A stretch of DNA of 64,000 nt from Candidatus Woesearchaeota archaeon (GCA_038884615.1 JAWABL010000004.1:4479-68478), one strand, 5' to 3'; positions 5,347-23,340 are shown, counted from the first letter of the stretch. Notes: generated from the letters alone by a model not told the origin. Program-made: numbers and translations.

Positions 5347-5769
5347 ATGGCAGTTATTGGTTTTAATTTCAACAAAATTGTAGCAGAGCGGGGTTCGGCT
5401 CCAAAGGAAAAGGTGAGTGTAAGCAATAATTTGAGCATTAAGGATGTTGAAGAGGTGTCTATTGCGTTCGGAAAGGAAAAACAGAAGGCCCTAAGGTTTC
5501 TTTTTCAGTTTGAGTCAAAATACTCACCCCAAGATGTAGGGAACCTTAGTATTGATGGTGAAATCCTATATATGCAGGAACCCAAAAAACTAAAGGAAAT
5601 CCAAGAATATTGGAAAAAAAATAATAAGCTTCCGAATGATGTTATGCCTATTGTTATGAATCATATACTTTTCAAGACAAACCTTAAGGCGTTGAATCTG
5701 GCTAGTGATGTGAATCTTCCATTGCCATTGCCAATGCCGAGAGTGCGAAATGCGGGAAGCAAAGCTTAA
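5347..5769 (+). CDS. Hypothetical protein (140 aa) overlapping the start of cdc48
   Basis: The ORF is preceded by a GGAAGGTGA SD. It overlaps the CDC48 start by 20 nt. No recognisable motif. Confidence 0.4.
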
Positions 5770-8248
5770 GGTGGCGGAAGCCATACAGGATGATGTAAAC
5801 AAGGGCATTGTTAGAATGGATTCTGGCTTTATGCACGATATTGGTGTAAGGCCAGGTGACATTGTTGAGATTGAAGGAGAAAGAAAAACAGTTGGAATAG
5901 TTGATAGAAGCTATCCTGGGGATATCGGACTTAAAATTATTCGGATGGACGGAATTGTAAGACGCAATGCCAAGACCGGCATAGGCGAGACTGTTGTTGT
6001 AAGAAAGGCTGATGTCAAAGAGGCTAAGAAAATAGTAATCGCACCAGCACAGAAAGGAATTATGGTGAGGGTATCACCACATCTTCTTAAGCAGGGGCTG
6101 CTTGGCAGGGCGGCTGTTAAAGGTGACATTATAAGTCTTGGAGGCACAAGTCGCAGAAGAACAGCCATGGGCGGTTCGCCTTTCTTTGATGATATCTTTG
6201 CGAGTATGCTTGATGAAGGAGTGCAAAGTTTTGGATTTTCAGATATAAAATTTATTGTTGTGGATACAATGCCGAAGCAACCTGTTATTATAACCGAGCT
6301 TACTGAGATAGTATTTAATCCCGAGGCTGTGGAGGTAAGAGAGGAAAAAGTTCTTGAGGTAACCTATGAGGATATTGGCGGGCTTGGGGACGAAATAAAA
6401 AAAATAAGGGAAATGGTTGAGCTTCCTCTGAAGCACCCCGAAATATTTGAAAGGCTGGGAATAGAACCACCAAAAGGCGTTCTTTTGCATGGCCCACCTG
6501 GAACTGGGAAAACACTGCTCGCAAAGGCAGTTGCGAATGAAACAGCAAGCAATTTTTATCTTATTAATGGTCCTGAAATAATGAGCAAATTCTATGGGCA
6601 GTCTGAAGCAAACCTCAGAAAAAAGTTTGAAGATGCCGAGAAAAACGCACCTTCGATAGTGTTTATTGATGAAATTGACAGCCTTGCACCAAAAAGAGAG
6701 GAAAGTTACGGCGAGGTTGAGAGAAGGGTTGTTGCGCAGCTTCTTGCATTAATGGACGGGTTAAAAAGCAGGGGACGAGTTGTTGTTATTGCAGCGACAA
6801 ATATACCAGATGTTCTTGATCCAGCACTCAGAAGGCCTGGGCGCTTTGACAGAGAAATTGAAATCGGCGTGCCAAGCAAAGAGGGCAGACTTTCAATCTT
6901 AAAAATACACACACGAAACATGCCTCTGTTCGGACCTCTTGATGCACTTAGGGAAAATGCAAATATCGAGGAAAACTATAAGGAAGCAATAATTGACCTA
7001 TTTGCCAATATACGTGACAAGGAAGGCATAAATCTAAGAACACTAGATAAACAGATAGGAAAGTATCTCAAGGATAATCCTGATAAAAACAAGCTTTTTT
7101 CCGAACTTGACTATAACAAAATAAAACAGTACATCCAGATGATAACCGAGGATCAAAGAATTGTAGATTTGAAAACTATAGCTGAAATTACACATGGTTT
7201 TGTAGGTGCAGACTTAAGCGCACTTACAAAAGAGGCTGCAATGGAAGTTCTAAGAAGGCTGCTTCCTGAGATAAAACTTAGAGAGGACGAGCCTATCCCA
7301 AAAGAGCTTTTAGAAAAACTAAAAATAACACAACAGGACATGAAAGAGGCGCTAAGAAGCGTTAGGCCTAGTGCAATGCGTGAAGTGCTCGTTGAAGTTC
7401 CCAATGTTAAGTGGTCTGATATAGGTGGACTTGATGATGTCAAGCAGGAGCTGATAGAAGCAGTTGAGTGGCCCATAAAAAACCCGCAAAGTTTCAGGAG
7501 GCTCGGCGTCTCCCCTCCTAAAGGAATTCTTATATATGGTCCGCCTGGGACTGGAAAAACAATGCTTGGTAAGGCTGTTGCAACCGAGAGCCAGGCAAAC
7601 TTTATACTTGTAAAAGGACCTGAGCTGCTTTCAAAGTGGGTTGGCGAAAGCGAAAAGGCAGTGAGAAAAATATTTAAAAAAGCTAGGCAGGCATCGCCGA
7701 CTATTATATTCTTTGACGAGATAGATAGCCTTGCTCCAAAGCGCGATGCAAGTTCAGACAGTCATGTTACAGAAAGAGTGGTAAACCAACTGCTCACAGA
7801 AATGGATGGGCTTGAAGAATTGCATGATGTAGTTATAATTGCTGCGACCAATAGGCCAGATATAATTGACGCTGCCCTTCTCAGGCCAGGAAGATTTGAC
7901 AGACTTATTTATACGCCTGTACCTGATGAAAAATCAAGAGAAGAAATATTCAAGGTACACACTCGAAAAATGCCCTTGAAGGATGTAAGCCTAAAAGAAC
8001 TTGCTAGAGAAACAGAGGGTTATGTAGGTGCGGACATAGAGGCTGTTTGCAGAGAGGCTGCGATGCTGGCGCTTCGAGACGATATAAATACTAAAGAGGT
8101 AACAAAAAAATATTTTGATATGGCAATGGAAAAAGTAAGGCCGTCTGTTACCAAAGAGGTAGAAAAAGTATATAAAGAGATGGAGAATTATCTGCGCTCT
8201 GCAAAGGCCAATGAAATAAAAGAAGAAAAACCTGCGTACATGGGCTGA
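5750..8248 (+). CDS. cdc48: CDC48/VCP/VAT-type AAA+ ATPase (N-domain plus two AAA modules)
   Basis: Two Walker A motifs (GPPGTGKT twice), two Walker B motifs (IVFIDEIDS and IIFFDEIDS) and arginine fingers ([11 protein letters not shown] and [11 protein letters not shown]). There is a double-psi-barrel N-domain ([25 protein letters not shown]). Length is 832 aa. Confidence 0.95.
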
Positions 8249-8327
8249 TTTATGAGTTGGTTTGTTGCTTTACTAACACAAAAAATAGGAAAACACTTTT
8301 AAACCCGACATTATTTTCGCTACTAAA

Positions 8328-8537
8328 ATGGTTAAAAGATCATTGCCTTTATCGTCCATGGAGAGAATACTTAAAAAGTGCGGTGCTGAAAGAGTTAGTG
8401 ATGAGGCGAAAAAAGCACTTAAAGCGGTAATTGAAGAACGCGCCACTGCCATCGCACAGAAAGCAATAAAAATTGCCGAGCACACAGGCAGAAAAACTGT
8501 TAAGGGAGCGGATATAAGGTTAGCAGTCAGAAGGTGA
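8328..8537 (+). CDS. Archaeal histone (HMf family)
   Basis: 69 aa. LPLSSMERILKKCGAERVSDEAKKALKAVIEE...HTGRKTVKGADIRLAVRR aligns along its whole length to HMfB (AGAERVSD...HAGRKTIKAEDIELAVRR). Confidence 0.9.
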   Translation: MVKRSLPLSSMERILKKCGAERVSDEAKKALKAVIEERATAIAQKAIKIAEHTGRKTVKGADIRLAVRR

Positions 8538-8558
8538 GTTTTTTAAAAGGTGAATCTG

Positions 8559-8786
8559 ATGGGAAGAATAAAAACAGACCTGATAAAGCGCATTACACAT
8601 AAAATAATGGAGAAGCATGGATATAAAATTACGGATAATTTTGAAAAAAACAAACAGATTGTTGGGATGCTTGTTGATTTTCCATCAAAAAAAATAAGAA
8701 ATGTCGTTGCGGGCTATGCAACTCGGCTTGTTAAAATGCGGAATCGGCCGAGGGTAAGAAGAATTGTCCAGTCTGAAGAGATGTGA
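8559..8786 (+). CDS. rps17e: Ribosomal protein S17e
   Basis: MGRIKTDLIKRITHKIMEKH... is the conserved S17e N-terminus. AGGTGA lies 6 nt upstream of the ATG at 8559. The track start at 8550 is probably over-extended. Confidence 0.85.
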   Translation: MGRIKTDLIKRITHKIMEKHGYKITDNFEKNKQIVGMLVDFPSKKIRNVVAGYATRLVKMRNRPRVRRIVQSEEM

Positions 8787-9150: not shown

Positions 9151-10470
9151 CTAGTTTATACTGCAACATACCTTTTTGTCGTATTCTGAGTTGCAATCTC
9201 CAATATAAGCGTCTGTTTGCTCTCCAACATCGTTTCCAAAACTGAAAAGACATCCTTCATTTCCGCTGCAACCACCAGCACTTCCGCTCTTAACACTACA
9301 AGTCGTGTCTCCTATGTTGGTATCTAAGCAAAGCCGTATGCTATAAAATGGAGTAGTATCATCATATCTTGCAATCTTGCTGTTGTTCCATGAAGACAGT
9401 TCAATTATGCCTGCAGACGACCCAGATATGTCCATGCACCTTTCCGAATCGCTTATATTGAAAACCTCCAAAACATCGAGTGTTCTTGACCTGCAGCAAA
9501 GAGTCCATTTGTAATCACTATAATTTGTTGTCTGGACAACTGCCTTATCATGCCCTCTGGTGCTGTTCTCCAGCCTTAAAATCGGTATCTCTTTTGTAAT
9601 GTCATTACATTCTGAGCTGTAGTTTATCATCCTGCAGACAATATCCCCTCTATAGTCCAAAAGGCCGTCACAATCATTGTCAATTCCATCATTGTCTATA
9701 GTTTCGCTTATCTCATAATCTGCTGATACAGATGGCTCATTGCCACCATTTATAGGGCTATCATCACCGCAGCACGCGTTTTGTCCAAAATATCCTGTCC
9801 AGTTATAGCCACTCGCAAGGCAAAGATAAATGCATGAATCGTTGTCGGTGTAAATCTCGTCGGTCTCTCCGTCGCAGTCGTCATCAAGAGCGTTGCAGTC
9901 TTCAGGCCTTGGCAGTATCTCATTTACGCAAACACTTTTATCCCCAAGACTGCACCTCAAGTTGCCTTCTTTACAGACACCTTGCAGGGTGTTTTCATCG
10001 CTATGGCACGATTCCTCAACACATGTATAATCTAGTCCTGTGCTTAGAATTATTACGCCGTAATCCTTTACTATATATATCAAGCCGCCACCAATATTGC
10101 TTTTATTTATCATGTCAACAAGCAAAACATCTGATTTAAAGGATACGCTTGTTATGCCTACAGGCGTTGAAATATTGAATACAAGCTCATTTCCAGCTCC
10201 TTTTGGAACATATATGCTCTCAACAGAGTCAGGCGTCTTAAAATTTAATTTTCTTAAAGTGTAACCCCCAGTTGAGTAAGCCATCTCTGCAACATCAATT
10301 ATCTCGTTGCCTATTTTCTTTACCTCTATAGTCTCAACATCGCTTACCGTCCTTTTGTGAAAATAATAGTATCCTACTAGCGCACCTATGAGTGCGAGAA
10401 AAACAAGGGTTATTGTTAATAAATATTCAAGACTCTGCTGCCCGTTTTTTCTTATGCCACCCTTTTTCAT
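9151..10470 (-). CDS. Type IV pilin-like protein with a large Cys-rich C-terminal domain carrying MopE-like metal-binding motifs
   Basis: The N-terminus MKKGGIRKNGQQSLEYLLTITLVFLALIGALVGYYYF matches the archaeal class III signal/pilin consensus (K-G-Q...E-Y-L plus a hydrophobic helix). The C-terminus has more than 35 Cys and two copies of C-x-x-x-DDDCDGETDE and DNDCDGLLDY. Confidence 0.6.
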   Translation of the reverse strand: MKKGGIRKNGQQSLEYLLTITLVFLALIGALVGYYYFHKRTVSDVETIEVKKIGNEIIDVAEMAYSTGGYTLRKLNFKTPDSVESIYVPKGAGNELVFNISTPVGITSVSFKSDVLLVDMINKSNIGGGLIYIVKDYGVIILSTGLDYTCVEESCHSDENTLQGVCKEGNLRCSLGDKSVCVNEILPRPEDCNALDDDCDGETDEIYTDNDSCIYLCLASGYNWTGYFGQNACCGDDSPINGGNEPSVSADYEISETIDNDGIDNDCDGLLDYRGDIVCRMINYSSECNDITKEIPILRLENSTRGHDKAVVQTTNYSDYKWTLCCRSRTLDVLEVFNISDSERCMDISGSSAGIIELSSWNNSKIARYDDTTPFYSIRLCLDTNIGDTTCSVKSGSAGGCSGNEGCLFSFGNDVGEQTDAYIGDCNSEYDKKVCCSIN

Positions 10471-10783: not shown

Positions 10784-12376
10784 TTATGAAAAGATGCTTC
10801 CAAACAGCATTCCCATTATTTTTGACGCAAGAAAAAATATAATCATTGTTGCCAAAATAAATATTGGGAGATAGTGTAGCCCTTCTTTCACATCGCCTTT
10901 TCTTATTGTTGTAACAATGATACCAGAAAATAGGGAAGAAACTCCAAGACATGCGTAGATAAATATTCTATAGTCTTCAGGTTTGATATTATCGCTAGAT
11001 ATATTTATTGATATCATTCCCCCTCTTGGCATTGAACCCGCTGAACTTACGCCAGTGGCTATCTTCTGTACAATTAAAAGAAGCTGTTCTGATAGGGCAA
11101 AAAGTACTGGTGCGGCTATTATAGAGGCGAATGTTATGAAAATCGCATAGGTCATTACATTCGCGCTCATCTCTTTTTTCATCGCTCGTAGTTCGCTTAT
11201 GTTTATTGCAATCTTGTTAAGAAGTTCGCCCACATCTCCGCCAGACTCAGTGCCTTCAATTAAAAGGGTTATTGAGCGCTCAAGTATTGTAGAATCATAT
11301 CTTTTTGAAAAATCAATAAGTGCCTTGTTAAGGTCTTCGCCGCTGAGAGTCCTTTTTGCAACATCTTCTATTTCCTTTGCAAGAACACCAAATTTTGGCC
11401 TTACAGCAAACCAAAGTGCTCGGTCAATGGACATGCCCGCCCTTATGTTTGCAGATGTAAGCTGAAGAAAATCTGGCAGTACTTCTTCAATCATAAGCTT
11501 TCTTTGGTACATCCTAATATCAATATAAATCATAAAAGACAGCCAGATAACTACCCATATAAGGAAGAATCCAAGAGTCCCTAATAGTAGAATCATTAAA
11601 GCAATATGACTTAGCGAGTCGTCATGTGAAGCTAGCCTTATGATTACAAAGAGAGTTGCAATTGCTGTAATTACGCCTGAGACTGTAAGAATTATTTTTG
11701 GTACCTTTGCGGGCTCAAGCTCAAGCCCTGCCTTCTCCATGTGCTCAACAAGCCGCCTTTTTCTTGCAGGAGCTGTCAGCTTCTTCCTTGTCTCCTCTGT
11801 TTGTTTTCTGAATACTTTAGCAATTTCAATCCTTTCTTCCTTTTTTGCGTTGTTTAGGCCATCTTTCTGTTTGTTTGAAATCTTAAATCTACTTTTGACA
11901 TGATTTATGGCATTGAGCAGGAGAGACCCTTTTGATTTTTCTACTACATCTTCAGATTTTTTAGCAGATGGTGTATTCTCCTCTTGATTATCTACTACTT
12001 TTTCAGCCTTTTTTTCAAATGTTTCTTTTTGCTGTTCCTCTTTTTTCTCTTTAGAACTCTCTTTTAGTTTACCAAGCAAATTTCTATATAAACTCCAAGT
12101 AAACCCGGCCTTCTTTGTACTTTTTTCATCATTTTTTGCGACATTTGAAAGACTTTCTCCCATGCTTTCTCTGCGACTAACTTTAGAAACATCTAACTTA
12201 GACTCCTGTGTTTTCTTTGTTATTTCTGTTTTTTTTCTATTCATTCCAGCAGCATTAGTTTTCATATTACTGCTGACTTTTTTTTCTCTTTTATCGCCTT
12301 TCGTTCTCTTTCCTGTACTAACTGCCTTTCCTTTATATAGCATTCCATATGCGCTTTTGATATTTTTTTTAGCCAT
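10784..12376 (-). CDS. T2SSF-domain membrane protein (TadC/FlaJ-like) with a lysine-rich disordered N-terminal extension of about 230 aa
   Basis: The C-terminal half has a GspF/TadB/FlaJ-type domain (LPDFLQLTSANIRAGMSIDRALWFA...LLIEGTESGGDVGELLNKIA) flanked by TM helices. The N-terminal 230 aa are low-complexity K/E/S-rich. Confidence 0.7.
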   Translation of the reverse strand: MAKKNIKSAYGMLYKGKAVSTGKRTKGDKREKKVSSNMKTNAAGMNRKKTEITKKTQESKLDVSKVSRRESMGESLSNVAKNDEKSTKKAGFTWSLYRNLLGKLKESSKEKKEEQQKETFEKKAEKVVDNQEENTPSAKKSEDVVEKSKGSLLLNAINHVKSRFKISNKQKDGLNNAKKEERIEIAKVFRKQTEETRKKLTAPARKRRLVEHMEKAGLELEPAKVPKIILTVSGVITAIATLFVIIRLASHDDSLSHIALMILLLGTLGFFLIWVVIWLSFMIYIDIRMYQRKLMIEEVLPDFLQLTSANIRAGMSIDRALWFAVRPKFGVLAKEIEDVAKRTLSGEDLNKALIDFSKRYDSTILERSITLLIEGTESGGDVGELLNKIAINISELRAMKKEMSANVMTYAIFITFASIIAAPVLFALSEQLLLIVQKIATGVSSAGSMPRGGMISINISSDNIKPEDYRIFIYACLGVSSLFSGIIVTTIRKGDVKEGLHYLPIFILATMIIFFLASKIMGMLFGSIFS

Positions 12377-12507: not shown

Positions 12508-13335
12508 TTATAATTCTACTGACGGCCTTGAGCTCTTGATTATTGCGTAAAACATGAATTGTATAAAACCAAGCATTCCTGCAACCATCAATAAAAAAAC
12601 AAGGGAAAGCTTAAATCCTATGAAACTTGAGAAAATTATTAGCATTGTTGTTCCGAGTGAGGGAAGGATTACTGCTATCAGCATATAAAACATAGCCAGC
12701 GGATTAAGCTTTCTGCCATATTCCTCAACTTCAATTTTTTGCTCTCTTACAATCTGCTCAAGCACAGATGAAAGTGCAGTTGTTACATCTGCGCCTGTTT
12801 TTATAGAGTTAAGAATTTGCCAGAATATTTTTCTTAAGTTGTTGGATGGCACAATCTCAGTTGCCTCTGTTATTGCATCGTCCATAGATGTCCCTAGATT
12901 AACCTTCTCTACAATGGCACCATAGTATCTTCCTACTGCAGGATACGCCTTTGCTACATTAACAAACGCGTTGTATATGGGCACTCCTGATTCAATCTCT
13001 ATTATGATAAATCTAGTAGCAAAAACAATCTCTTTGTTTATGGCCTTTTCACGGCGTTTGATTTTTATATCGGGCACTCTCATCATATAAAAGAACATTA
13101 TTGCAACAGCTATGGGAAAGAGGACAAGGGTTATTTCTATGGGGACTCCAAATCCCTTTAGGATGCCTCCAAGAAAAAGCACAACAACCCCAAATGAAAG
13201 CATGAGAGAGATGATTAAAGTTTTTCTTACAAATTCTTCAGGTGAGTCAAGAATTTCTGCCTGGACAAGCTTGAGCTTTAAGCCAGGGTAGAAATCGCTT
13301 ATTTTATGAAAGATAAAATGTACAATGTTAATCAC
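12508..13335 (-). CDS. T2SSF-domain membrane protein (TadB/FlaJ-like, second half-size paralog)
   Basis: 275 aa with TM helices at both ends and a central cytoplasmic T2SSF-like domain (NKEIVFATRFIIIEIESGVPIYNAFVNVAK...). It lies directly adjacent to the ATPase gene. Confidence 0.7.
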   Translation of the reverse strand: MINIVHFIFHKISDFYPGLKLKLVQAEILDSPEEFVRKTLIISLMLSFGVVVLFLGGILKGFGVPIEITLVLFPIAVAIMFFYMMRVPDIKIKRREKAINKEIVFATRFIIIEIESGVPIYNAFVNVAKAYPAVGRYYGAIVEKVNLGTSMDDAITEATEIVPSNNLRKIFWQILNSIKTGADVTTALSSVLEQIVREQKIEVEEYGRKLNPLAMFYMLIAVILPSLGTTMLIIFSSFIGFKLSLVFLLMVAGMLGFIQFMFYAIIKSSRPSVEL

Positions 13336-15144
13336 CTAAGCAAGCTTTTTATTTGCTCTTACATACTTCAATAGATTTTCATAGTTTGTGTAGTACTCTG
13401 CCATTACTCTGCCTACTCCATCAACTGTATCTATGTTATTTCTAACAAGGTAGTTGAGCACCTCCTCCTTTGTCTTAAGAATGTTTTGTATCTCTTTTGG
13501 CGAATGCCCTGTAAAAAGCTGGAGTGTCTGCATAAGCGCCTTGCTTTCCTTTACTTTTTTAAGTTTATCTTCCTTTGGGTCGTACTGCATTATAACATTA
13601 ACTGATGCGTCAGGTAAAATTTCGGCTATCTGGAATGTTCTTCTAAGGCCAGTTCTCCTGTTTCTAAACTGAACAATTATAAGAGAAATTGCAGGCATCA
13701 TGCTTTTTGGAACCTCAATAGGGGGGTTAGTCAGCCTGTTTACGGTCTCCTCAGCTGTGTTTGCGTGGAATGTTGCATAGCAGCTGTGCCCAGTATGTAT
13801 TGCCTCAAAAAGAGTTTCAGCCTCTCTCTTCCTTCTTACCTCGCCTACAAGTATTCTATCTGGCCTCATTCTAAGGCTATTTACAAGAAGGTCTTCCATT
13901 GTTACTTCTCCTTTCCCTTCGGTGTTTGGAAGCCTTGTATTCATAGGGACCCAATGCAAAAACTTAGGTAGCCTTATTTCTCTTGTATCCTCTATAGATA
14001 TTATTCGTTGGTTGGGGGGGAAGAAGCTTGCAAGCACATTAAGCGCGCTTGTTTTTCCGCTTGCAGTTCCTCCAGCTATTATCGCAGAAAGCTCATACTG
14101 CATGCAAAGCCAGATAAGTGCAGCCGCTTCTGTGCTGATTGTATTGTGCTGCAAAAACTTTGTTATTGTAAATGGGTCTCTTGAAAACTTTCTTATCGTA
14201 ATTGTATTGCCTCTTGTTGATATAGGCATGATTGTAGCATTGACCCTGTCACCCTCTGAGAGATGGGCGTCTAGCAACGGCTCAAGTATGCTAATCTGTC
14301 TCCCTACCCTGCGGCCTATCATTGCTGCATAGTGCTTTGTCTGGTCGTCATTTGGCATGAATATATTTGACTTTAGCCAGCCGTGTTTCTTATGGTATAC
14401 CCAAACCGGTTCCTCAACGCTGTTTATTACTATCTCCTCAAGAGCAACATCATGCATTAATATGTCAATATTTCCCATTCCAAGACTCTTTTGTATAAGA
14501 TATGTTGTTAGATACCCCTTGGTCTCATCGTCGACATCAGGGAAATACTTTTTAACAAGAATTGCTATCGTTTCCTTGAACTTTTCTTCTACAATCCCTG
14601 TTTCCTTTGGGTTTATTATCTCAACCATTCCAAGGGTTACTTCCTTAATCAGCTTTTTTCTTATTTGCTCAAGTATCATCTCAGTAGTCTTGCTGATGCT
14701 TGCGATTGAGACCTCATATATAGGCACAAACTCTCCTTCTTTTGTATATACTCTTATTGTTATCGGCATATTATCGCAGTTAAAATGGTATTCGTCAAGA
14801 AGCCGTATTATTCTATCAGAATTCTCATCAAGTCTTTCCTGTTTATCAAACGCACTATGCTGATAATTTTTTTTGTTTAATTTCTTTTTATCTTTGGCAG
14901 TCCCCTGCTTTTCTTGTAAGGCATCACCACTTTTTGTTTGAGATGCGTCTCCTTCCAGATGCTCTTTTACCTCTTCCTTCACTGCGCCTAGTTTGCCTGC
15001 TTCCTTTTTGCTGGAAGTTTGTGTAGATACGCCGCTAGTCAACTCCTGCGAGTCTCTCCTTTTTTTCTCTTTCGTTTTTTTTGTTTCTGGACTCCAAACT
15101 AATTTTGATTTGCCATGTCCCCCTCTTTTTTTAACCATCTTCAA
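13336..15144 (-). CDS. Type II/IV secretion-system ATPase (FlaI/PilB/VirB11 family) with a basic disordered N-terminal extension of about 110 aa
   Basis: Walker A (AGGTASGKTSALN), an Asp box / Walker B (IISIEDTREI), a His box (AIHTGHSCYATFHA) and the VirB11/GspE core (RMRPDRILVGEVRRKREAE). The N-terminus is K-rich low complexity. Confidence 0.85.
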   Translation of the reverse strand: MKMVKKRGGHGKSKLVWSPETKKTKEKKRRDSQELTSGVSTQTSSKKEAGKLGAVKEEVKEHLEGDASQTKSGDALQEKQGTAKDKKKLNKKNYQHSAFDKQERLDENSDRIIRLLDEYHFNCDNMPITIRVYTKEGEFVPIYEVSIASISKTTEMILEQIRKKLIKEVTLGMVEIINPKETGIVEEKFKETIAILVKKYFPDVDDETKGYLTTYLIQKSLGMGNIDILMHDVALEEIVINSVEEPVWVYHKKHGWLKSNIFMPNDDQTKHYAAMIGRRVGRQISILEPLLDAHLSEGDRVNATIMPISTRGNTITIRKFSRDPFTITKFLQHNTISTEAAALIWLCMQYELSAIIAGGTASGKTSALNVLASFFPPNQRIISIEDTREIRLPKFLHWVPMNTRLPNTEGKGEVTMEDLLVNSLRMRPDRILVGEVRRKREAETLFEAIHTGHSCYATFHANTAEETVNRLTNPPIEVPKSMMPAISLIIVQFRNRRTGLRRTFQIAEILPDASVNVIMQYDPKEDKLKKVKESKALMQTLQLFTGHSPKEIQNILKTKEEVLNYLVRNNIDTVDGVGRVMAEYYTNYENLLKYVRANKKLA

Positions 15145-16295
15145 TCCTTTACAAGACTTAACAGTTTTTTGAGCTTGTTATGGAAGCTTTCTCTTTTTTT
15201 GTCTACCTCTACAAACTTTTTCTCAAGCTCTGAAATATGCTTTTTGACATCTGCGCTGTTTGATGCTAGATTGAATGCGGTAGCTTTCTTGATAAGATTG
15301 TTAAGCTCTTCGCGAAGGCTTATCCTTAGGGCATCGGTTTCTTCAAGGATTTTCTCAACCTCGTTCTTCCTGCTGAAGAAGGCTTCAAATTTCTTTGCCG
15401 CAGACTTTGCGTCCTGGGGAACATTTTGCATGCTTTTCTTTTTTTCCAGGACTTTTGCAAGCACATCTTGCTGCAAGGAGAGTATCTTTTTTTCACCCAT
15501 CTTGCTCTGCTCAATCAGAGGTTCTAGCTTTTTCTTTTCTTCAAGTATTCTGCTTTTTATTTTTTCAGCTGACTTTTCAAGAGCCTTTATATGCTCTTCA
15601 GTTATCTCTATTTTCTTGTCTTCTTGGTAGATGCTTTCGCGTATCTTTTTTATTATGTCTGAGAACTCGTCTAGCTTTTTAAGAAGCCCTGCTTCTTGTT
15701 CCTTAAGGCCCAACGACTGCGATTTTTCTTCTGCAAGCTTAACTCTTTCAAGCTCTATGTCATCAACAAGTTCCTGATATTTTGATTTTTCCTTTAAAAG
15801 CTCTTTCTCTAGCTCTTGTATCTTGTTTTTGAATGCTGCCTGTTGCTCAAGCAGCTGTTTGTCTATATTTTTCTTGAGTCGTTCGTAGTTTTCAAGCTCG
15901 GCGAGTTCCTGTTTTACGGAGTCTATATCGCTGCCTAGCTCCTTCTTAATGGCGGCGAACTCCTTTTTCAGGTTTTCAAGCCCTTCACATTCTCTGTCAA
16001 GCGTGGTTATTGCACTCTCTACCTTCCTTATAAACGCTTCCTTTGAGCTGTGGTATTCCTTCTCCTTTTTTGTTATCTCCTTTTTTGAAAGCTTTCTCTC
16101 AACAAGATAAGTTGTTGCGAGCTTGTACTCAAGGCTTATAATACCTTCCTCCTCAAGAAAATCCGCCCATTCATCAATAACTGCAGGAGAAACCCCCAGA
16201 ATCTTGGCAGCCTCGCTAGTAGATATTCTCGTTTTCTCATTTACCAGCTTAACAAGTTTGTCAACTCCTGTTTCAATAATTCCTCCTTTAACCAT
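15141..16295 (-). CDS. HTH-domain plus long coiled-coil protein encoded within the pilus operon
   Basis: The first ~70 aa (TRISTSEAAKILGVSPAVIDEWADFLEEEGIISLEY) look like a winged-HTH. The next ~300 aa are heptad-rich with E/K/L, consistent with coiled coil. There is a 4-nt overlap with the ATPase gene start. Confidence 0.5.
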   Translation of the reverse strand: MVKGGIIETGVDKLVKLVNEKTRISTSEAAKILGVSPAVIDEWADFLEEEGIISLEYKLATTYLVERKLSKKEITKKEKEYHSSKEAFIRKVESAITTLDRECEGLENLKKEFAAIKKELGSDIDSVKQELAELENYERLKKNIDKQLLEQQAAFKNKIQELEKELLKEKSKYQELVDDIELERVKLAEEKSQSLGLKEQEAGLLKKLDEFSDIIKKIRESIYQEDKKIEITEEHIKALEKSAEKIKSRILEEKKKLEPLIEQSKMGEKKILSLQQDVLAKVLEKKKSMQNVPQDAKSAAKKFEAFFSRKNEVEKILEETDALRISLREELNNLIKKATAFNLASNSADVKKHISELEKKFVEVDKKRESFHNKLKKLLSLVKD

Positions 16296-16391: not shown

Positions 16392-17330
16392 TCACTCAAT
16401 GAGTTCTTCAACCTCATACCTTGCAAGATGTCCACTCTCGTTGTCCAGCCTAAACCAGTTGTATGTGTTTTTTATAAGATAGTGTTCTGGGCTTTCCTTG
16501 CTGAAATATATATAATCTATACAAGACTTGTTTAGTGTGTTTATATCATTTGCCTCGAGCTCAATAAGGTTTACAAGGCTTTCAATGCCGTACGGAGAGC
16601 TATTTAGGTCTCCTTTTAGCCTCATAAGATAACTCGGTGCACTTTGTGAGTCTATATATAATGAATTGTCAAGATGGTATAGAAGGTTTGTTGTGTCGTT
16701 ATTTGGTCCGACAAAATCGGTTATGCTGCTTTTTTCAATTGTATTTATCACTCTTCCAAATGTATTTACAGTGTATAGTGGGTCTTCAAACCCCACTATA
16801 CTGAGCGATGTGTTTATTCTCTTGTTTCGTGACCAGTAGGCAAGTCCGTTTCTGTCCTGTATATACTCTGTAACATCTAGCGATATTGTTAGTGTCCAAG
16901 GATCAGAATGGCTTATACTTATGTCATTAAGCGTGTAGTTGAAATATATCCCTGTCTTTACAGCCTCAACCCTTATTCTTTCAACCCATATACTTAGCTG
17001 TGTATCATTCATAACACTCATGTATTCGCCGTTTATTGTTCCGTTTATTATAATCTCCTCAATAACATCATCTGTGTCATAAAGGAACTCGCCTTTTGAT
17101 GTTATATACTGCTGGATTGCTAGCAGAGACCTAAATGACGCGATATAAACACCCCTCTCAATGTCCTTTTCTAGGTCATCAACAAAATGGTCTAGCGTTG
17201 TAACTCTGCTGTCAATTACAATTGCTTTGTCTCTTAAGCGCGTCTGATAATCTAGCGAGATGTACAAAAAGAGTAGAACTAAAAATACCATCGCTGTTAA
17301 TGTAAAGAAAAACCCTTTTTTCACTGCCAT
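16392..17330 (-). CDS. Pilin-like protein (class III signal peptide MAVKKGFFF-hydrophobic)
   Basis: The N-terminus MAVKKGFFFTLTAMVFLVLLFLYISL is nearly identical to the N-terminus of the giant downstream protein. The mature part is rich in N-x-S/T sequons. It overlaps the next gene by 10 nt. Confidence 0.5.
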   Translation of the reverse strand: MAVKKGFFFTLTAMVFLVLLFLYISLDYQTRLRDKAIVIDSRVTTLDHFVDDLEKDIERGVYIASFRSLLAIQQYITSKGEFLYDTDDVIEEIIINGTINGEYMSVMNDTQLSIWVERIRVEAVKTGIYFNYTLNDISISHSDPWTLTISLDVTEYIQDRNGLAYWSRNKRINTSLSIVGFEDPLYTVNTFGRVINTIEKSSITDFVGPNNDTTNLLYHLDNSLYIDSQSAPSYLMRLKGDLNSSPYGIESLVNLIELEANDINTLNKSCIDYIYFSKESPEHYLIKNTYNWFRLDNESGHLARYEVEELIE

Positions 17331-20300
17331 ACCCTCACCTCAACAATGGTTGGTCCCCAGAGGTAGGGTATATCCCTTACTACCTTAGCGTCAATGACTG
17401 CATCTTCCTCATGGAAATTTATAAACACTCTACCATCGTTATTGTAGTCAAGATGTGTAAGAAGCAGATGCATTGCTACATCATAACTATCGTCGGAGTC
17501 ATATCCGGATGAATCATGAGACGAGTTTGTATAAAAGCACTTCTTACTACCTGAATAACTGCTTGGGACACTGACGTTTGTGAGGGTTAAGTCTTCAAGC
17601 TCTATTGTCCAGTTGCAGCCCTCAGCCTTGTATTTTACTTCGCTGTATGGCAAAGTGAAGTTTACAACATTTATAAGCCCAGTATATAGGAATGTGTTGT
17701 TTACAGAGCAGTTGCTTGTATTTGTTGGCTCGTCACCCACATTTATTTTTATAGTGTTGGTTTCTCCTCTTACAATATATGAGGTGCTAAATGGGATAGC
17801 GAATGGGTCTCCCATATAACTATAGTCTGTGCTGAAACGGCTGAGGTTATAGAAAACAAAAGTTCCCATAGAGTTATTTATTGTAAGCAAGTCTGTCCAA
17901 TGCGTACCAGAGTATGATGTAACCGCAGCTTCAATAGGTCTTACCTGACTTGGAATAAAAACACTAAAAGTGCAATTCTCCGGATTTTTGTATTCAAAGA
18001 ATATAGGAACCTCTCCATATTGAACAGGCTGTGTATATGGGGTATAATTAAGCATTATGTAAGAGTCAGGGTACAGGTAGCTCTTCTCAAAATTACCCAC
18101 TATTGTTATAATTTGCTGGACTTTATATGAAAAGCTGTTGCTTAGCTTCTCGGCTATCTCGCTGTATATTAGAGAAAGTCCGCTTGGGTTGTCGCTTTCA
18201 TAGTAGTGTGTATTGTTTGTGGAATTATATTCTGGATCGCACAGCGCCGTTAGGTTAAGCGTTTTCCTGCCGCCGGTGCCTACAGAACCAAATGCTACTG
18301 TATAAATAGAAAGATTGTATTTTTTTTGATAGTAGCATGTAATGTTTATAAGCTGTTCTGCGGCGTCTTCGTCTCCGTCAGAGAATTCAGCCTGGTCGAT
18401 TTCAGGCAGGTCTGGGCATGGCACGCTAAGCTGGCCTATTGCGTCAGGACAGCATCCTGAACCAGCGCAGTTGTCGCAGCCATTGTCAACCATCCCTCCG
18501 TCATCAACGCAGACATTTGCCTCGCCATCGCTCATTAAAACCAGCGCTTTCTGCCTTTTTGTTGCGTTTGCATAAAGCCCGACTTGCAGTTTGCCATTGC
18601 TATCTGAGTTGTACAGCTTAATGCCCATGATGTTTTCGCCTTCATTTAGGAGCGCCTTGCTTATCTGTGTCACCCTGTTGTCTACATGCCCAGTATAGGA
18701 GTCTACAAGGTTTCCGTTTATATAGACATCAGCTCCATCGTCTGATGTTATATTAATATATACATTTTCATCAATTCCAGTTGCATCAAGGACAAAAAAT
18801 TTATTTCTATAAAATGTGTTATTACTAGTGTTTGTAAATACAAGCTGGATGTTGTCAAATGAAAACGAGCCTATCTCGCTTGACGAATCTCTTCTCAGTT
18901 TTCCGCCGATTGCAAGGTAATAGTATCCTTCACCTGTAATCCACTCTGTTATATCCTGGACAAAATGTCCGCTATGCTCATAGTCCGGGTCATCAGCAGA
19001 CCATATTTCTTCGCCGGCGTCACCGTCATCTGAAGACATTTCAGTACCAAGGTAGTGTTTGCTTCCTGTTCTGTTCATAAAAAAGCCTTTAACCCATACC
19101 TCATCAGAAGTTTCAAACACGCTGGAGCTTCCGTCGTCAGCAGCGTCCCATCTGTAGTTGAATGACAACAGCGCTTTTCCACCGTTGCTGTTCATCATGT
19201 CTATCATTTCGGGGGTTATGTTAATCTGTATGCCCCATGCGCCCGAGTTTGAGCCAGAACCTGAGCCGTTTACAACAAATTCAAGGTTTCCTGTCGCGTT
19301 ATAGTAAAAATCAGTATAATTACCATTATAGCCAAAAACACCCCCCTGCCAGTCCCAGCCATCGTCTGTGCTTTCTATTGAAGGAGTGTAGTTTATAGTT
19401 ACACCTATATCATCAAACGCAACCACCGTCCTGCTTGTTCCATTGCTTACGACTGCGCCACATAGGAGGTTATAGCTGAATGTATCGGATGTAATAAGGT
19501 TTGTTATATCTATAATCTCTTCCTTTGGTCTTTCTGTGTTGTTGTTTGCCGACCAGTTTACAGACCATACCTCTGTTTCTCCGATAGGGGAAGTAATGTT
19601 GCAAAAAAGGTATGCAGTTCCATTAAAGTAAAGGTCATTTGTGCTGTGCCTAAGTGTTAAAGATACATTATTTGGCGAAGATGTTGGGCTTGTGAATGTT
19701 TGGTTTACATATCCTATTCCGCCAACCCATGAGTCTACAATAAAATAGTCGGTCATTCCAAACACATTTGTGCTTACATTGATATAGTCAAAATCTGCGC
19801 CATAATTTCCATCGTCCATAGCCCATGCATAGACAGCGACGGTTCCATTGGCTAATGTGTTGTCATTTGCTTGTGCGATGAGCGTTGAACCCCTATAAAT
19901 TTTAATATTAGTCCCGGTAACCTCAATAATCATGTTATTCCAGTTATCAGTACTGAAACCGGATGATGAACCTTCGTTTGACCATAGTATAGTTCTTGTT
20001 CCGCTGTGTATCCTCTCAAGCCTGGAAAATAGTCCGCCGAAGTTGTCGTTGTCAATTCTGAATCTATAGTAGTTCTGGTTATCATTATACCTAAATAGCA
20101 GTCCTATGCAGTCGTTGTCGTTAGGTCTTATTCTTGCATTCACAGTATAGTCTTTCCAGTTGAATCCATTTCTGTAGTAAGCATATGGACCGTAACCGTC
20201 GTCCCTTGAGCCTGGTGCAGAGTTTGTTGATTCTACAAGATAATTGTTAAATATTTGCCAGTTTCCTCCGTTTGGAACCTCCATCCAGTTGCTCCCTATA

Positions 20301-22228
20301 TTATCATTGTTTGGCCTGTTGAAATTATCATACATAAACTCCGCTATTCTAGAGCTCTCTGTTGCGACAGAGCCAGTAGACTGCCAGCTGTTAAGACTCG
20401 GTCCTGTAAAGTTCATGTTTTTGATTGGCATTATTGTAATAGCAGTTGGAAGTCCGAAAGTGTTTCCCTTAGAATATATGCCTGAATTGAAATCAACTGG
20501 TGCAATTTTATCGGATGGGTGAGGCCAGAGATACGCCTGAATAGTGTTACCAGCGTAGTAGTCTGCAGGAAAGCCTATACCAAACTTTAGTGTTCCTTCC
20601 TGCCAGAGGCTATCGTCATAGTCAACAGCAGTCCATCCGGGAGGTTCTGATACCTGAAACTCACTTGTATATCTCCACTTATTGTGCAATAGGTCAGTCA
20701 CATTGTTGCCCATAAGTATATTGACTCCTTGATAGACCCCGCATGAAATACAAGTTCCTCCGTTCGCATAATATTGCTTAATCTGGTCTAAAATAAGTGT
20801 GCTGTTTTTTGTTAAACTTAATATATCTCTAATGCCTGAATAATAACTTACAAGCCCTATCCTGTTTCCAGATGTGTTTACAACAATCTGCCTATTAAAA
20901 TCATCAAGTATGCATTTTAGCAAGCTCAGCCTTTGTGTGCTGTTAAGTTTTAGTAGAGGGTCTTTGCAAAACCTTTCAACCCCTGTATTTGTATCGTCAA
21001 ACCTCCAATTCATGCTTCCGCTTACATCGTTCACTACTACAACGTCTCCATTTCCTCTATCACTTATAGTTCTTACAAAAGAAAGGTTTTCAAACCCAAG
21101 CCTCACAGGGACTGTCTGGTTGCTGATTGCTTTATAATCAATCAAGCTACTAAGGTTGCTGTTATTAATATATACACTAATAGTTGTATTGGAGTAGTTG
21201 TCTGAGTAGATCAGCGTATTCCCTATAAGAAGTGAAAGTGTGCTGTTTGAGTTGTTTGAATGGTTTGCAAAATAATGAAGGTATACCTCCATGCTGTTCA
21301 GATCGCCTGGGATGTCAATAGCAGAATAAAAATTTATAATTCCTGAAATTCCAGAGAAAAGGAACACTTCTGAGTCAATATCTTTATAATATATTTGTTT
21401 GGTGTAATAGTCAATCCTTATGAACCCTCCGGCGACATATGCAGATTCTATCTCTTCTGGAAATACGAGTGTAAACTCTGTAGTTATGTCCTTGTTTATA
21501 AGGTTCTTGCATGATGTTATGTCAAAAGCGTCGGCCTCCATATTTCTCCCGCTGACTACGAAATCTCCGCAATGTGTTCCATTAATATAAAGGCTAAAAT
21601 TATTTCCCGCGGAAATCTCCATATAAACCTTTGTTATATTGGCATCGCTTGGGGTTTGCTGTATAATCTTTGTAATGTTTCCTTGTCCTTCAAACCCTCC
21701 AAAATATGCATAAATAGACCTTGCAAGTTGCTCCTCACCTCCTGTAAGAAATATTCTTGCAGAGGTTCCCTTTATTGGTCTTGATTTTTGTATTCCTGTT
21801 ATCATGCTTTTATAGACTGCAAGGTCCTTTTGTCTAGAAATATTTCTAGAATACATAGTTTGATTGCCGTAAATGGCCATCATTCCGTAAGTCCTTGGCA
21901 CAAGTTGAGCAGTAATGTTTTGTATAAGCACCTCTGCAATTTCTGTATTGTTTTTTGCCCATAGTATGCCAATTTCTTCTATAACTGTATTATCATACTC
22001 CGTTTCAGGGATGGTTCCATTGAATATAAGCTCTTTTAGGATAGGATTGTCAAACTCTATTACCTTGGTTGTTGAGAGGATACGGATTATATCCATCGGT
22101 GCGTAGTTTATCTGTGCGGTCGGCTGCTTATACGCGTAGATGGCGGAAAACAGAAGGAACCCTCCTCCTATGAGCATAAGAGCAAGAAGTGCATCAGTGC
22201 TGAAGAAAAATCCCCTTTTCACCGCCAT
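17321..22228 (-). CDS. Giant (1635 aa) pilin-like surface adhesin with VWA and LamG/concanavalin-like domains, heavily sequon-decorated
   Basis: The N-terminus MAVKRGFFFSTDALLALMLIGGGFLLF is class-III-signal-like. A VWA MIDAS motif is present (VVVVNDVSGSM ... and a second KALVLMSDGEANVC). A LamG-like segment is present (CIGLLFRYNDNQNYYRFRIDNDNFGG). More than 100 N-x-S/T sequons are visible by eye. Confidence 0.6.
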   Translation of the reverse strand: MAVKRGFFFSTDALLALMLIGGGFLLFSAIYAYKQPTAQINYAPMDIIRILSTTKVIEFDNPILKELIFNGTIPETEYDNTVIEEIGILWAKNNTEIAEVLIQNITAQLVPRTYGMMAIYGNQTMYSRNISRQKDLAVYKSMITGIQKSRPIKGTSARIFLTGGEEQLARSIYAYFGGFEGQGNITKIIQQTPSDANITKVYMEISAGNNFSLYINGTHCGDFVVSGRNMEADAFDITSCKNLINKDITTEFTLVFPEEIESAYVAGGFIRIDYYTKQIYYKDIDSEVFLFSGISGIINFYSAIDIPGDLNSMEVYLHYFANHSNNSNSTLSLLIGNTLIYSDNYSNTTISVYINNSNLSSLIDYKAISNQTVPVRLGFENLSFVRTISDRGNGDVVVVNDVSGSMNWRFDDTNTGVERFCKDPLLKLNSTQRLSLLKCILDDFNRQIVVNTSGNRIGLVSYYSGIRDILSLTKNSTLILDQIKQYYANGGTCISCGVYQGVNILMGNNVTDLLHNKWRYTSEFQVSEPPGWTAVDYDDSLWQEGTLKFGIGFPADYYAGNTIQAYLWPHPSDKIAPVDFNSGIYSKGNTFGLPTAITIMPIKNMNFTGPSLNSWQSTGSVATESSRIAEFMYDNFNRPNNDNIGSNWMEVPNGGNWQIFNNYLVESTNSAPGSRDDGYGPYAYYRNGFNWKDYTVNARIRPNDNDCIGLLFRYNDNQNYYRFRIDNDNFGGLFSRLERIHSGTRTILWSNEGSSSGFSTDNWNNMIIEVTGTNIKIYRGSTLIAQANDNTLANGTVAVYAWAMDDGNYGADFDYINVSTNVFGMTDYFIVDSWVGGIGYVNQTFTSPTSSPNNVSLTLRHSTNDLYFNGTAYLFCNITSPIGETEVWSVNWSANNNTERPKEEIIDITNLITSDTFSYNLLCGAVVSNGTSRTVVAFDDIGVTINYTPSIESTDDGWDWQGGVFGYNGNYTDFYYNATGNLEFVVNGSGSGSNSGAWGIQINITPEMIDMMNSNGGKALLSFNYRWDAADDGSSSVFETSDEVWVKGFFMNRTGSKHYLGTEMSSDDGDAGEEIWSADDPDYEHSGHFVQDITEWITGEGYYYLAIGGKLRRDSSSEIGSFSFDNIQLVFTNTSNNTFYRNKFFVLDATGIDENVYINITSDDGADVYINGNLVDSYTGHVDNRVTQISKALLNEGENIMGIKLYNSDSNGKLQVGLYANATKRQKALVLMSDGEANVCVDDGGMVDNGCDNCAGSGCCPDAIGQLSVPCPDLPEIDQAEFSDGDEDAAEQLINITCYYQKKYNLSIYTVAFGSVGTGGRKTLNLTALCDPEYNSTNNTHYYESDNPSGLSLIYSEIAEKLSNSFSYKVQQIITIVGNFEKSYLYPDSYIMLNYTPYTQPVQYGEVPIFFEYKNPENCTFSVFIPSQVRPIEAAVTSYSGTHWTDLLTINNSMGTFVFYNLSRFSTDYSYMGDPFAIPFSTSYIVRGETNTIKINVGDEPTNTSNCSVNNTFLYTGLINVVNFTLPYSEVKYKAEGCNWTIELEDLTLTNVSVPSSYSGSKKCFYTNSSHDSSGYDSDDSYDVAMHLLLTHLDYNNDGRVFINFHEEDAVIDAKVVRDIPYLWGPTIVEVRVWQ

Positions 22229-23340
22229 GCATACACCACCATTATAATTGGTTGACGGTTATACAACATAACTCTCTGAAGGCTTACAAGGCTGCTTGAG
22301 TTTACCTTACTGAAGTCAAGGCTTGCGTTTATCACTACATCATTAAAATGTTGTTCTACTGCCTCCTCAATATAGTCTTGGTATTCTCCGTATTCCCCAG
22401 AGTAGACTGCGTCAAAACTACTGAAATAGTAGACCTGACCTTTGCCGTAAACCCATTTTGCAATCGTGCTAGTCTCTCCAGATTTTGCTATAGTTTCAAA
22501 ATATTGTGTGCGGTTTCCTAGAACTGTGCTGTTGTGGTTATAGGATATTATGTCATTAGGATTAAAGTCCAGATAGTTGTCGCTGCTTACAACAGTAGAA
22601 TTAAATGTACCTAAATCTCCGGCAATATATGTTACATTAAGGAACTGCCCATCTGTTTGGGAAACATTGCCGGACAAAAAAATAAAGTGTCCTGTTCTAA
22701 CATAGTCCTCAATAATAGAGACCTGTGCAGGGCTGAACCTTGGATTTTCTATCAGTGCTGCGTCAAGCGAATTAATATTTGTAACAAGTTCGTCAGGACT
22801 TGTATACGATACAACATTTATCCCTGTCCTTGCCTCAAGAATAGGCATTTTTGTATGCAACAGGCTTGCTGGCATTGCATAATAGCCAAAAAATTTCTCG
22901 TCAGCATTTGTTTTTACCTCAACAGACCAATGCCCTATATAATACTGGCTTCCGATTTTTCTTAATCTTCCATCGGGGCTTTTGAAGAAAACCGCAAAAT
23001 CGCTTCTTGACCCAAAAAGAAACTTGCTTTTGTAGTAACTGCTGTTTGTGAGGTTTGCAAACCTATCTGCTTTTGATTTGTCAAGCACATAATCGCTTTT
23101 AAAAAGCCCTATCCTACGCACAGTGGTGTTAGTCCAGTCTGGTGGGTATCCTTCTGTCATAAGTCCTCCAGAAATAGACCTTGCGTCGTTATAGACCTCC
23201 TCAATCTTTTTGAGTTTTTGTTCTCTTATATTCGGAATAAAGCTGAATATAAACGCCATTGAAATGCTAAATATCACTATTGCAATTATAAAATCCTGGT
23301 ACCATACCTGACCATGCCTCTTTTTTAGCATTTCATGCAC
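22219..23340 (-). CDS. Pilin-like or secreted protein (373 aa)
   Basis: The N-terminus KKRHGQVWYQDFIIAIVIFSISMAFIFSFI is a basic stretch, then G-Q, then a hydrophobic helix, which is class-III-signal-like. It overlaps the giant gene by 10 nt. Confidence 0.45.
   Translation of the reverse strand: MHEMLKKRHGQVWYQDFIIAIVIFSISMAFIFSFIPNIREQKLKKIEEVYNDARSISGGLMTEGYPPDWTNTTVRRIGLFKSDYVLDKSKADRFANLTNSSYYKSKFLFGSRSDFAVFFKSPDGRLRKIGSQYYIGHWSVEVKTNADEKFFGYYAMPASLLHTKMPILEARTGINVVSYTSPDELVTNINSLDAALIENPRFSPAQVSIIEDYVRTGHFIFLSGNVSQTDGQFLNVTYIAGDLGTFNSTVVSSDNYLDFNPNDIISYNHNSTVLGNRTQYFETIAKSGETSTIAKWVYGKGQVYYFSSFDAVYSGEYGEYQDYIEEAVEQHFNDVVINASLDFSKVNSSSLVSLQRVMLYNRQPIIMVVYAWR

Follow-up and report, generated by a model that had tools for sequence, protein, structure and literature searches.

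What is a 1635-aa protein with a VWA (von Willebrand factor type A) domain doing in the middle of an archaeal pilus operon? The protein, called the giant below, is encoded in a 64,000-nt stretch of Candidatus Woesearchaeota archaeon (GCA_038884615.1 JAWABL010000004.1:4479-68478); this whole stretch is referred to as the window, and all coordinates are positions in it. An earlier note, made from the sequence alone, had taken the protein for a pilin-like adhesin, and the open reading frame (ORF) that it relied on is real, since it appears in the ORF list and its product is 100% identical to a protein from a metagenome-assembled genome (MAG) deposited at NCBI as "VWA domain-containing protein" of Ca. 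Woesearchaeota. We read the giant as an archaeal form of a known type of protein, the VWA-bearing pilus adhesin subunit, and it belongs to a large uncharacterised family with N- and C-terminal domains of its own. Our preferred reading is that it serves as a pilin-like adhesin subunit of an Epd/Tad-like type IV filament, assembling with two coupled neighbours and probably located at the pilus tip (probability about 0.6).

Relatives of the giant were found in at least 438 species genomes in a scan with one genome per species, and the family comprises more than 1000 clusters at 50% identity. The genomes belong to Woese-, Nano-, Pace-, Aenigmat- and Altiarchaeota, together with some MAGs labelled Methanosarcinales. 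The earlier note called such a protein undescribed for archaea. Our search of the literature, in a searchable body that omits most subscription journals, found no account of this family, but adhesin-like and PilY-like proteins have been noted in general terms for archaeal type IV loci (PMC4858521; bioRxiv 10.64898/2026.04.22.720090). The 2026 census (bioRxiv 10.64898/2026.04.22.720090) covers the adhesin-like and PilY-like proteins and does not mention a VWA subunit.

Leader, VWA domain and terminal domains

The giant starts with MAVKRGFFFSTDALLALMLI and the 312-aa protein encoded next to it with MAVKKGFFFTLTAMVFLVLL. The earlier note described the two N-termini as shared almost verbatim, and the likeness is there, with 11 identities and 17 positives in 20 residues, although it is confined to this segment and ends past residue 20. 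For the family, 102 homologues were aligned on a conserved Asp, which gave the motif [KR][KR][GA]/[YFVI][FY]F[TS]x-D-A-[LIF][LIF]-A (the slash marks the putative cleavage site) followed by about 16 hydrophobic residues. G or A occupies position -1 in 98 of 102 homologues, K or R position -2 in 94 and Asp position +6 in 101. The giant itself reads K4-R5-G6/F7 with about 21 hydrophobic residues behind, and AlphaFold2 (AF2) predicts a helix at residues 4-31.

A review of archaeal pilins (PMC4371748) asks of class III signals that -1 be G, A or S, that -2 be charged and that cleavage take place in front of the hydrophobic domain; the giant has the charged -2, G at -1 and a putative N-terminal site before its hydrophobic domain. 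No Sec-type A-x-A cleavage site is conserved after the helix in the 102 homologues. The cleavage-site geometry on which the earlier note had made its proposal depend is thus present and conserved (98 of 102), which argues against an arbitrary membrane anchor. The two neighbours carry related signals. N-termini in the family of the upstream 373-aa partner follow [KR][GA]/Q-x4-[DE]-F, with the acidic residue also at +6, and the downstream 312-aa partner has the motif of the giant without the acidic residue at +6.

The second pillar is the VWA domain, whose assignment by the earlier note is confirmed by profile scores, residue conservation and predicted structure. The segment VVVVNDVSGSM begins at residue 396, and the metal ion-dependent adhesion site (MIDAS) is complete (D401, S403, S405, T492 and D1234); 60 aligned homologues share D401, S403 and D1234 without exception, and at least 90% of them have S405 and T492. 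The native giant reaches only 27.7 bits with Pfam VWA_2 (cut-off 27), and only profile positions 1-83 of 107 are covered. After in silico removal of residues 509-1220, VWA_2 scores 43 bits over the full profile (1-107) and PF00092 (VWA) scores 34 bits (cut-off 23.8). Short family members (about 900 aa) have an undivided VWA domain. In the family alignment, that of the window protein breaks off behind the helix opened by the MIDAS Thr (GGT492CISCG...) and continues at KALVLMSD1234G.

A phmmer search of PDB with the whole giant as a single sequence gave only chance matches to complex I subunits (E>0.1), and a family profile was required. With the profile of the conserved core, VWA matches were obtained to Mfa5 (3.9e-18), 4rck, an uncharacterised membrane protein (1.5e-13), and the Streptococcus sanguinis type IV pilin PilB (9.2e-11), followed by RrgA (7e-5) and pilus adhesins of group B Streptococcus (GBS; about 2e-4). 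An AF2 model of the core, i.e. the giant with the insert deleted, has a mean pLDDT (predicted local distance difference test) of 86.9 and shows alternating strands and helices in the VWA region, in keeping with a Rossmann-like alpha/beta fold. Foldseek, in a whole-model search dominated by the VWA domain, placed the pilus-tip adhesins Mfa5, PitA and SpaC on top, with RrgA at rank 25 and no pilin among the top 50 matches, and comparison with isolated VWA domains gave template modelling (TM) scores up to 0.79 (target-normalised). Canonical VWA topology would put the insertion point, between the helix of the MIDAS Thr and strand beta4, at the pole away from the metal site.

VWA proteins linked to archaeal type IV systems have so far been discussed as cytoplasmic ArnB-type regulators (PMC4858521). 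Such a role was rejected for the giant on account of its N-terminal membrane helix, its load of N-glycosylation sequons of the extracellular type and its adhesin-type VWA matches.

On both sides of the VWA domain lie regions particular to the family. No Pfam, NCBIfam or PDB sequence match was found for residues 32-390 or about 1369-1635, and the C-terminal domain has no Pfam match even at E<=10. After the signal helix, AF2 predicts a low-confidence break (32-37), helices (38-107) and then a beta-rich region. The motif YFGGFxGQGN is invariant in the N-terminal domain family. A profile of this domain matched 1416 cluster representatives among 1.84 billion, and in all 150 matches listed the domain lies at the very N-terminus, mostly in proteins whose length is 850-2031 aa; entries below this length are probably fragmentary. 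The C-terminal domain is predicted as strands, with block pLDDT mostly 77-96 and two lower blocks. Its extreme end is conserved as well, with W-G-P at -12 to -10 in 97-99 of 120 homologues and W at -2 in 102 of 120, and AF2 predicts a strand there. The C-termini of the upstream partners show a similar hydrophobic-x-hydrophobic-W motif.

The insertion and its cassettes

The core common to all family members comprises residues 1-500 and about 1300-1635, and the middle is variable. The 712-aa insertion of the giant is missing from the 900-aa family members. Its AF2 model has a mean pLDDT of 76; residues 829-1222 are all beta with pLDDT around 90, and residues 632-819 are poorly modelled. Foldseek matches of the insert are jelly-roll arrays, namely reelin repeats, enteropeptidase, the carbohydrate-binding module (CBM) CBM32 of EngBF, CBM22, galactose-binding domains of beta-galactosidase and Vip3 CBMs. 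Residues 1135-1208 match BetaGal_ABD2 (E about 1e-3), Glyco_hydro_2_N2, PA14 and PA-IIL below the Pfam cut-offs.

The LamG-like block of the earlier note received marginal support. Pfam Laminin_G_3 matches it with 19.2 bits (cut-off 27.6; E=1.4e-3), and a profile built from three sequences found CBM66 of Bacillus levanase in PDB (4b1l; E=1.4e-3 over 147 residues) and the putative glycosyl hydrolase 4jqt, both with E-values of 1-3e-3 and covering almost all of the block. On the other side, the Pfam match is below the cut-off, the comparison by hhalign with bona fide Laminin_G_3 domains of the relatives P0059 and P0116 is not significant (E=0.13), and AF2 block pLDDT is about 29-78, a low confidence explained by the three sequences that cover the block. 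A word-indexed homologue search with the block alone returned no matches. We consider a concanavalin A (ConA)-like lectin fold likely for residues 640-819.

In close relatives whose flanks are 38-51% identical, the slot of this block is occupied by unrelated sequence, for example an InhA-like MAM domain in P0004 (9e-7) and other sequences in P0003 and P0005. More distant members carry Laminin_G_3 (4e-27 and 2e-16), MAM, DUF2341, reelin-like or beta-propeller modules. The presence of unrelated modules in one slot indicates that the VWA domain acts as a scaffold for exchangeable binding cassettes. Moreover, three relatives from Pace- and Micrarchaeota (P0075, P0105 and P0109) have a PSII_BNR/Ycf48-like beta-propeller inserted after the VWA "TDG" strand, a point that differs from that of the window protein, so the VWA scaffold takes modules at more than one loop.

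The giant is rich in N-x(not P)-S/T sequons. The earlier note estimated on the order of 100; the count is 58, so the estimate was almost twofold too high. Composition predicts 24.9 +/- 4.4 (maximum of 1000 shuffles, 41), and the enrichment, 2.3 times the expectation, is therefore real. What was termed extreme is nevertheless typical of the family: the giant has 3.55 sequons per 100 aa and ranks 39th of 120 homologues, against a family median of 3.15, and family-wide the sequons are enriched 2.2-fold, with 96% of the 120 homologues at z>3. Within the operon, enrichment is limited to the predicted extracellular proteins; the giant aside, these have 2.0-2.7 per 100 aa, compared with mostly 0-0.8 among the cytoplasmic proteins encoded in the window.

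Two side observations concern glycosylation. In the Altiarchaeota locus L004, an AglB/STT3 oligosaccharyltransferase in fusion with F5/8 type C (discoidin) domains is encoded at 5363-8659 of that locus, two genes upstream of the VWA gene; this fits glycosylation and says nothing on the window genome itself. In the window, no Pfam family matches a 336-aa ORF (2949-3959, minus strand) whose 8 sequons exceed the expectation from composition (z=3.8); it is probably another exported glycoprotein.

The operon and known pilus systems

The giant lies within a minus-strand operon (about 24414 to 9151; Table 1), in the order two small pilins, the 373-aa pilin-like protein, the giant, the 312-aa protein, a 384-aa coiled-coil protein, the ATPase, two T2SSF genes and a 439-aa Cys-rich protein. 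Both junctions flanking the giant (22219-22228 and 17321-17330) consist of the same 10-nt overlap, ATGGC[G/A]GTGA, and such start/stop overlaps on both sides imply coupled translation. The 373-aa protein ends in ...VVYAWR and the giant in ...VRVWQ, and each time the next gene starts with MAVK[R/K]GFFF. The repeated junction suggests either an ancient duplication of a unit of terminal strand plus next leader, or a shared coupling signal.

Table 1. Genes of the operon and regions of the giant, with positions in the window
Feature	Position	Strand	Description
Small pilin, 137 aa	24001-24414	minus	Gln+1/Glu+5 class III signal; weak Pfam Class_IIIsignal
Small pilin, 129 aa	23420-23809	minus	Gln+1/Glu+5 class III signal; weak Pfam Class_IIIsignal
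373-aa pilin-like protein, upstream	22219-23340	minus	KRHG/QVWYQD...; weak DUF7287 N-terminal match; stop overlaps start of the giant by 10 nt
Giant gene, whole	17321-22228	minus	1635 aa, ATG start; class-III-like signal and split VWA domain (ORF list)
Giant, aa 1-31	22136-22228	minus	Basic MAVKRG, then hydrophobic helix F7-Y31 with Asp12 at +6; putative class III signal and alpha1 helix
Giant, aa 32-390	21059-22135	minus	Family-specific N-terminal domain; helices 38-107, beta-rich 115-380; AF2 block pLDDT mostly 79-98
Giant, aa 391-508	20705-21058	minus	VWA N-terminal half; MIDAS D401-x-S403-x-S405 (21014-21028) and T492 (20753-20755); Pfam VWA_2 at aa 396-499
Giant, aa 509-1220	18569-20704	minus	712-aa insertion within VWA; string of beta-sandwich/jelly-roll (CBM-like) modules
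Giant, aa 640-819	19772-20311	minus	"LamG-like" block; probable ConA-like lectin module, closest to CBM66/DUF1080
Giant, aa 1131-1215	18584-18838	minus	Last insert module, galactose-binding-domain-like beta-sandwich; confident AF2, beta-galactosidase Foldseek matches
Giant, aa 1221-1368	18125-18568	minus	VWA C-terminal half; strand beta4 "ALVLMSDG" with MIDAS D1234 (18527-18529); Cys-rich loop
Giant, aa 1369-1635	17324-18124	minus	Family-specific all-beta C-terminal domain; conserved terminal strand ...LWGPTIVEVRVWQ
312-aa protein, downstream	16392-17330	minus	Start overlaps stop of the giant by 10 nt
384-aa coiled-coil protein	15141-16295	minus	Weak HTH-like (helix-turn-helix) N-terminal match; between pilin-like genes and ATPase
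FlaI/TadA-type ATPase	13336-15144	minus	Pfam T2SSE 7e-34; NCBIfam FlaI, TadA and BasE partial matches
T2SSF platform gene	12508-13335	minus	Pfam T2SSF 5e-13
T2SSF platform gene	10784-12376	minus	Pfam T2SSF 3e-16
439-aa Cys-rich protein	9151-10470	minus	Last operon gene; class-III-like start KNG/QQSLEYLL; DNDCDG-type repeats; 9 sequons

The same gene order is found in a 1.8-Mb Woesearchaeota chromosome, a Joint Genome Institute (JGI) metagenome, a Micrarchaeia MAG and an Altiarchaeota MAG. In 84 related loci compared by tblastn, homologues of the 312-aa partner were found in 80, where they follow the VWA gene, those of the 373-aa partner in 51, where they lie directly upstream of it, and those of the ATPase in 53; homologues of the two small pilins lie upstream in 63 (pilin A) and 51. 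The family goes with a type IV filament operon throughout, and the linkage with pilus genes holds in at least 5 DPANN lineages and Altiarchaeota. An ATPase with a platform split in two genes is the hallmark of archaeal "system 1"/Epd-like loci, and system 1 has been reported in some DPANN; bacterial Tad pili are believed to derive from it (bioRxiv 10.64898/2026.04.22.720090).

Some members of the operon are less constant. The 384-aa coiled-coil protein has zero sequons and is conserved in 40 of the 84 loci. The 439-aa Cys-rich protein has no Pfam match and was found by tblastn in just 8 of the 84; a plain PilA-like pilin often takes its place. Many TPA (third-party annotation)-assembled MAGs titled "uncultured Methanosarcinales archaeon" carry the DPANN-type operon (L005, L010-L012, L024, L049 and others), with up to 76% identity in the ATPase, and the taxonomic label of these records looks unreliable. 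About 13 kb from the pilus operon, the window also holds a classic MoxR-VWA pair, in which a MoxR-type AAA ATPase (34832-35890, plus strand) overlaps a 399-aa VWA/DUF58-like protein (35877-37076, plus strand); the pair is unrelated in sequence to the giant.

Which known pilus protein does the giant resemble? The earlier note pointed to PilY1/PilC, and some features are shared: these proteins of type IVa pili are large tip-associated adhesins, often with an N-terminal VWA domain, with minor-pilin partners and a functionally critical beta-strand at the extreme C-terminus (PMC13533445, PMC9210963). But they are Sec/signal peptidase I (SPase I) substrates without a pilin-type N-terminus and with a C-terminal beta-propeller, so TadG/CpaL and S. 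sanguinis PilB/PilC fit better. Membership of PilY1/PilC was rejected for the giant, with no match to the Neisseria_PilC propeller (Pfam/NCBIfam, E<=0.1), no propeller in AF2 and no Sec-type signal.

CpaL/TadG of bacterial Tad (type IVc) pili combines a pilin-like module with a VWA domain that a beta-rich insert splits, and builds a tip complex together with two minor pilins (bioRxiv 10.1101/2025.02.12.637803; PMC12075869; PMC13533445). Like TadG/CpaL (and KilN), the giant is a large pilin-like subunit with an N-terminal hydrophobic segment of class III type, a full-MIDAS VWA domain whose chain a beta-rich insert breaks up, a beta-strand conserved at the extreme C-terminus and two smaller minor-pilin-like genes alongside; its operon encodes, like the Tad machine, a TadA-type ATPase and a two-gene platform of TadB/TadC type. 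In contrast to TadG/CpaL, it is about three times larger, with unrelated N-terminal (360-aa) and C-terminal (270-aa) beta domains, its insert enters after the helix of the MIDAS Thr and not before, and it has Asp at +6, a heavy sequon load and an archaeal host.

S. sanguinis PilB (VWA) and PilC (ConA-like lectin) are modular type IV pilins, and a third minor pilin joins both in a tip complex (PMC8179133, PMC9934059). They share with the giant the design of a pilin with a grafted adhesive module, and the VWA domain matched at E=9.2e-11 is that of PilB (PDB 7b7p). However, the giant joins VWA and lectin-like modules in one chain, the lectin-like part being nested within the VWA domain, its pilin part is not predicted as a canonical head, and its system is archaeal and Epd/Tad-like, not type IVa. 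The best profile and structure matches of the VWA domain come from Mfa5 (type V pili) and from RrgA, SpaC, PitA and GBS104 (sortase pili), which are MIDAS-dependent fibre-tip adhesins; these are assembled by sortase or type V strand exchange, their inserted "arms" lie elsewhere in the VWA domain and they have no class III signal.

Within archaea, the locus resembles Epd/"system 1" loci of Methanococcus maripaludis and relatives, with an ATPase, a two-gene platform and Gln+1/Glu+5 pilins (PMC4371748). Those loci also hold adhesin-like or galactose-binding proteins with class III signals, but a VWA/MIDAS subunit is not described there, and an EppA-like peptidase gene was not found in the locus of the giant.

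A pilus-tip adhesin and its alternatives

How might such a protein work? [quoted passage not shown] The helix would then dock with the 373-aa and 312-aa coupled neighbours into an initiation or tip complex that would nucleate or cap the fibre, and below which the two small Gln+1/Glu+5 pilins would polymerise, driven by the FlaI/TadA-type ATPase and the two-gene platform. The body of the giant would be displayed at the distal end of the fibre, where the MIDAS metal site and the lectin-like cassettes may act in binding; the ligands would probably be glycans or proteins carried by a host cell or another surface. Dense N-glycosylation, as predicted from the sequons, would shield the long exposed polypeptide, and swapping of the inserted cassettes between relatives would retune binding specificity.

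Several observations weigh against this reading. Residue +1 in the family of the giant is F, Y, V or I, compared with Gln+1 in the other pilins of the operon; since an EppA-type peptidase needs Gln+1 (PMC4371748), the giant would stay uncut by such an enzyme. A scan for multi-transmembrane ORFs with a GxGD motif, with Pfam searches on the candidates, found no prepilin peptidase gene in the window or in the flanks of the 84 related loci (what the scan did bring up was an M48 peptidase and unrelated membrane proteins), so leader cleavage of the giant is something we infer. The region behind the helix is predicted as a helical bundle plus beta domain, in contrast to the textbook alpha-beta head of pilins. 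Outside the VWA domain there is no detectable sequence similarity to TadG/CpaL, and Tad_N, TadE and PilY1 models in Pfam and NCBIfam do not match the giant at E<=0.1; because of this, membership of the TadG or PilY1 family is unsupported, and the likeness to TadG is one of architecture and gene context. The filament, and the place of the giant on it, are predicted from the genes.

Several of these points would also suit another explanation, which we regard as unlikely: the giant could be a membrane-anchored accessory of the pilus machine with an uncleaved signal-anchor, serving as anchor or gate at the base, or a cell-surface adhesin merely co-regulated with the pilus. The +1 residue that differs from the Gln+1 of the operon pilins, the peptidase gene not found nearby and the domain predicted to be unlike a classic pilin head agree with it, and an anchoring role was once proposed for TadG (PMC4858521). 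A plain anchor, however, needs neither the fixed G/A (98 of 102) nor a near-invariant Asp six residues on, and the same motif is present on the coupled 312-aa partner. Moreover, TadG/CpaL is now placed at the tip, and the VWA domain of the giant is most like those of tip adhesins.

Less probable still, at a level we would call improbable, is a class-III-signal surface protein in a short bindosome- or pseudopilus-like envelope structure that captures substrates such as glycans. The Bas system of archaea assembles sugar-binding proteins that likewise bear class III signals (PMC2910488), the ATPase shows a partial match to BasE and the insert is built of CBM-like folds; yet the operon has dedicated small Gln+1/Glu+5 pilins and relatives have a PilA-like pilin, as in fibre-forming systems, no linked transporter genes were found in the loci compared, and fibre tips are where VWA/MIDAS adhesins are typically found. 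A generic secreted VWA protein with an ordinary Sec signal, placed next to pilus genes by chance, would agree with the NCBI name, which gives only a VWA domain, but is very hard to reconcile with pilus linkage in at least 5 DPANN lineages and Altiarchaeota, gene overlaps on both sides and the lack of a conserved A-x-A site after the helix.

The pilin-like adhesin proposed here can be carried one step further, with a suggestion that is possible but on balance doubtful: archaea may have in this family their counterpart of the TadG/CpaL tip-initiation subunit, possibly in its ancestral form, with cassettes that set the host of a DPANN episymbiont. The 373-aa protein, the giant and the 312-aa protein would then form a tip complex joined by the conserved terminal strands (...VYAWR and ...VRVWQ), with the 312-aa protein, which lacks the acidic +6, as apical subunit. 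The bacterial proteins PilY1, GspK and CpaL have a terminal strand that fills up the sheet of an apical minor pilin and licenses assembly, and that apical minor pilin is without the acidic residue (PMC13533445). By this analogy the 312-aa protein could be apical, which we offer only as a lead.

DPANN archaea are tiny and mostly uncultured, and many of them are attached to other cells. To our knowledge, the way in which they recognise and hold their hosts is largely unknown. The family of the giant is a candidate attachment and specificity determinant of DPANN, as it combines a metal-dependent adhesion site with exchangeable lectin-like modules. If the proposed function is true, the design of a pilin plus a VWA adhesin at the tip, as in bacterial Tad, type IVa and Gram-positive pili, extends to archaea, and an archaeal tip VWA adhesin would be relevant to the question whether all type IV filaments inherited tip-complex licensing from their ancestor. 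If the TadG/CpaL-like extension also holds, the nested cassettes would decide which host cell a DPANN episymbiont attaches to.

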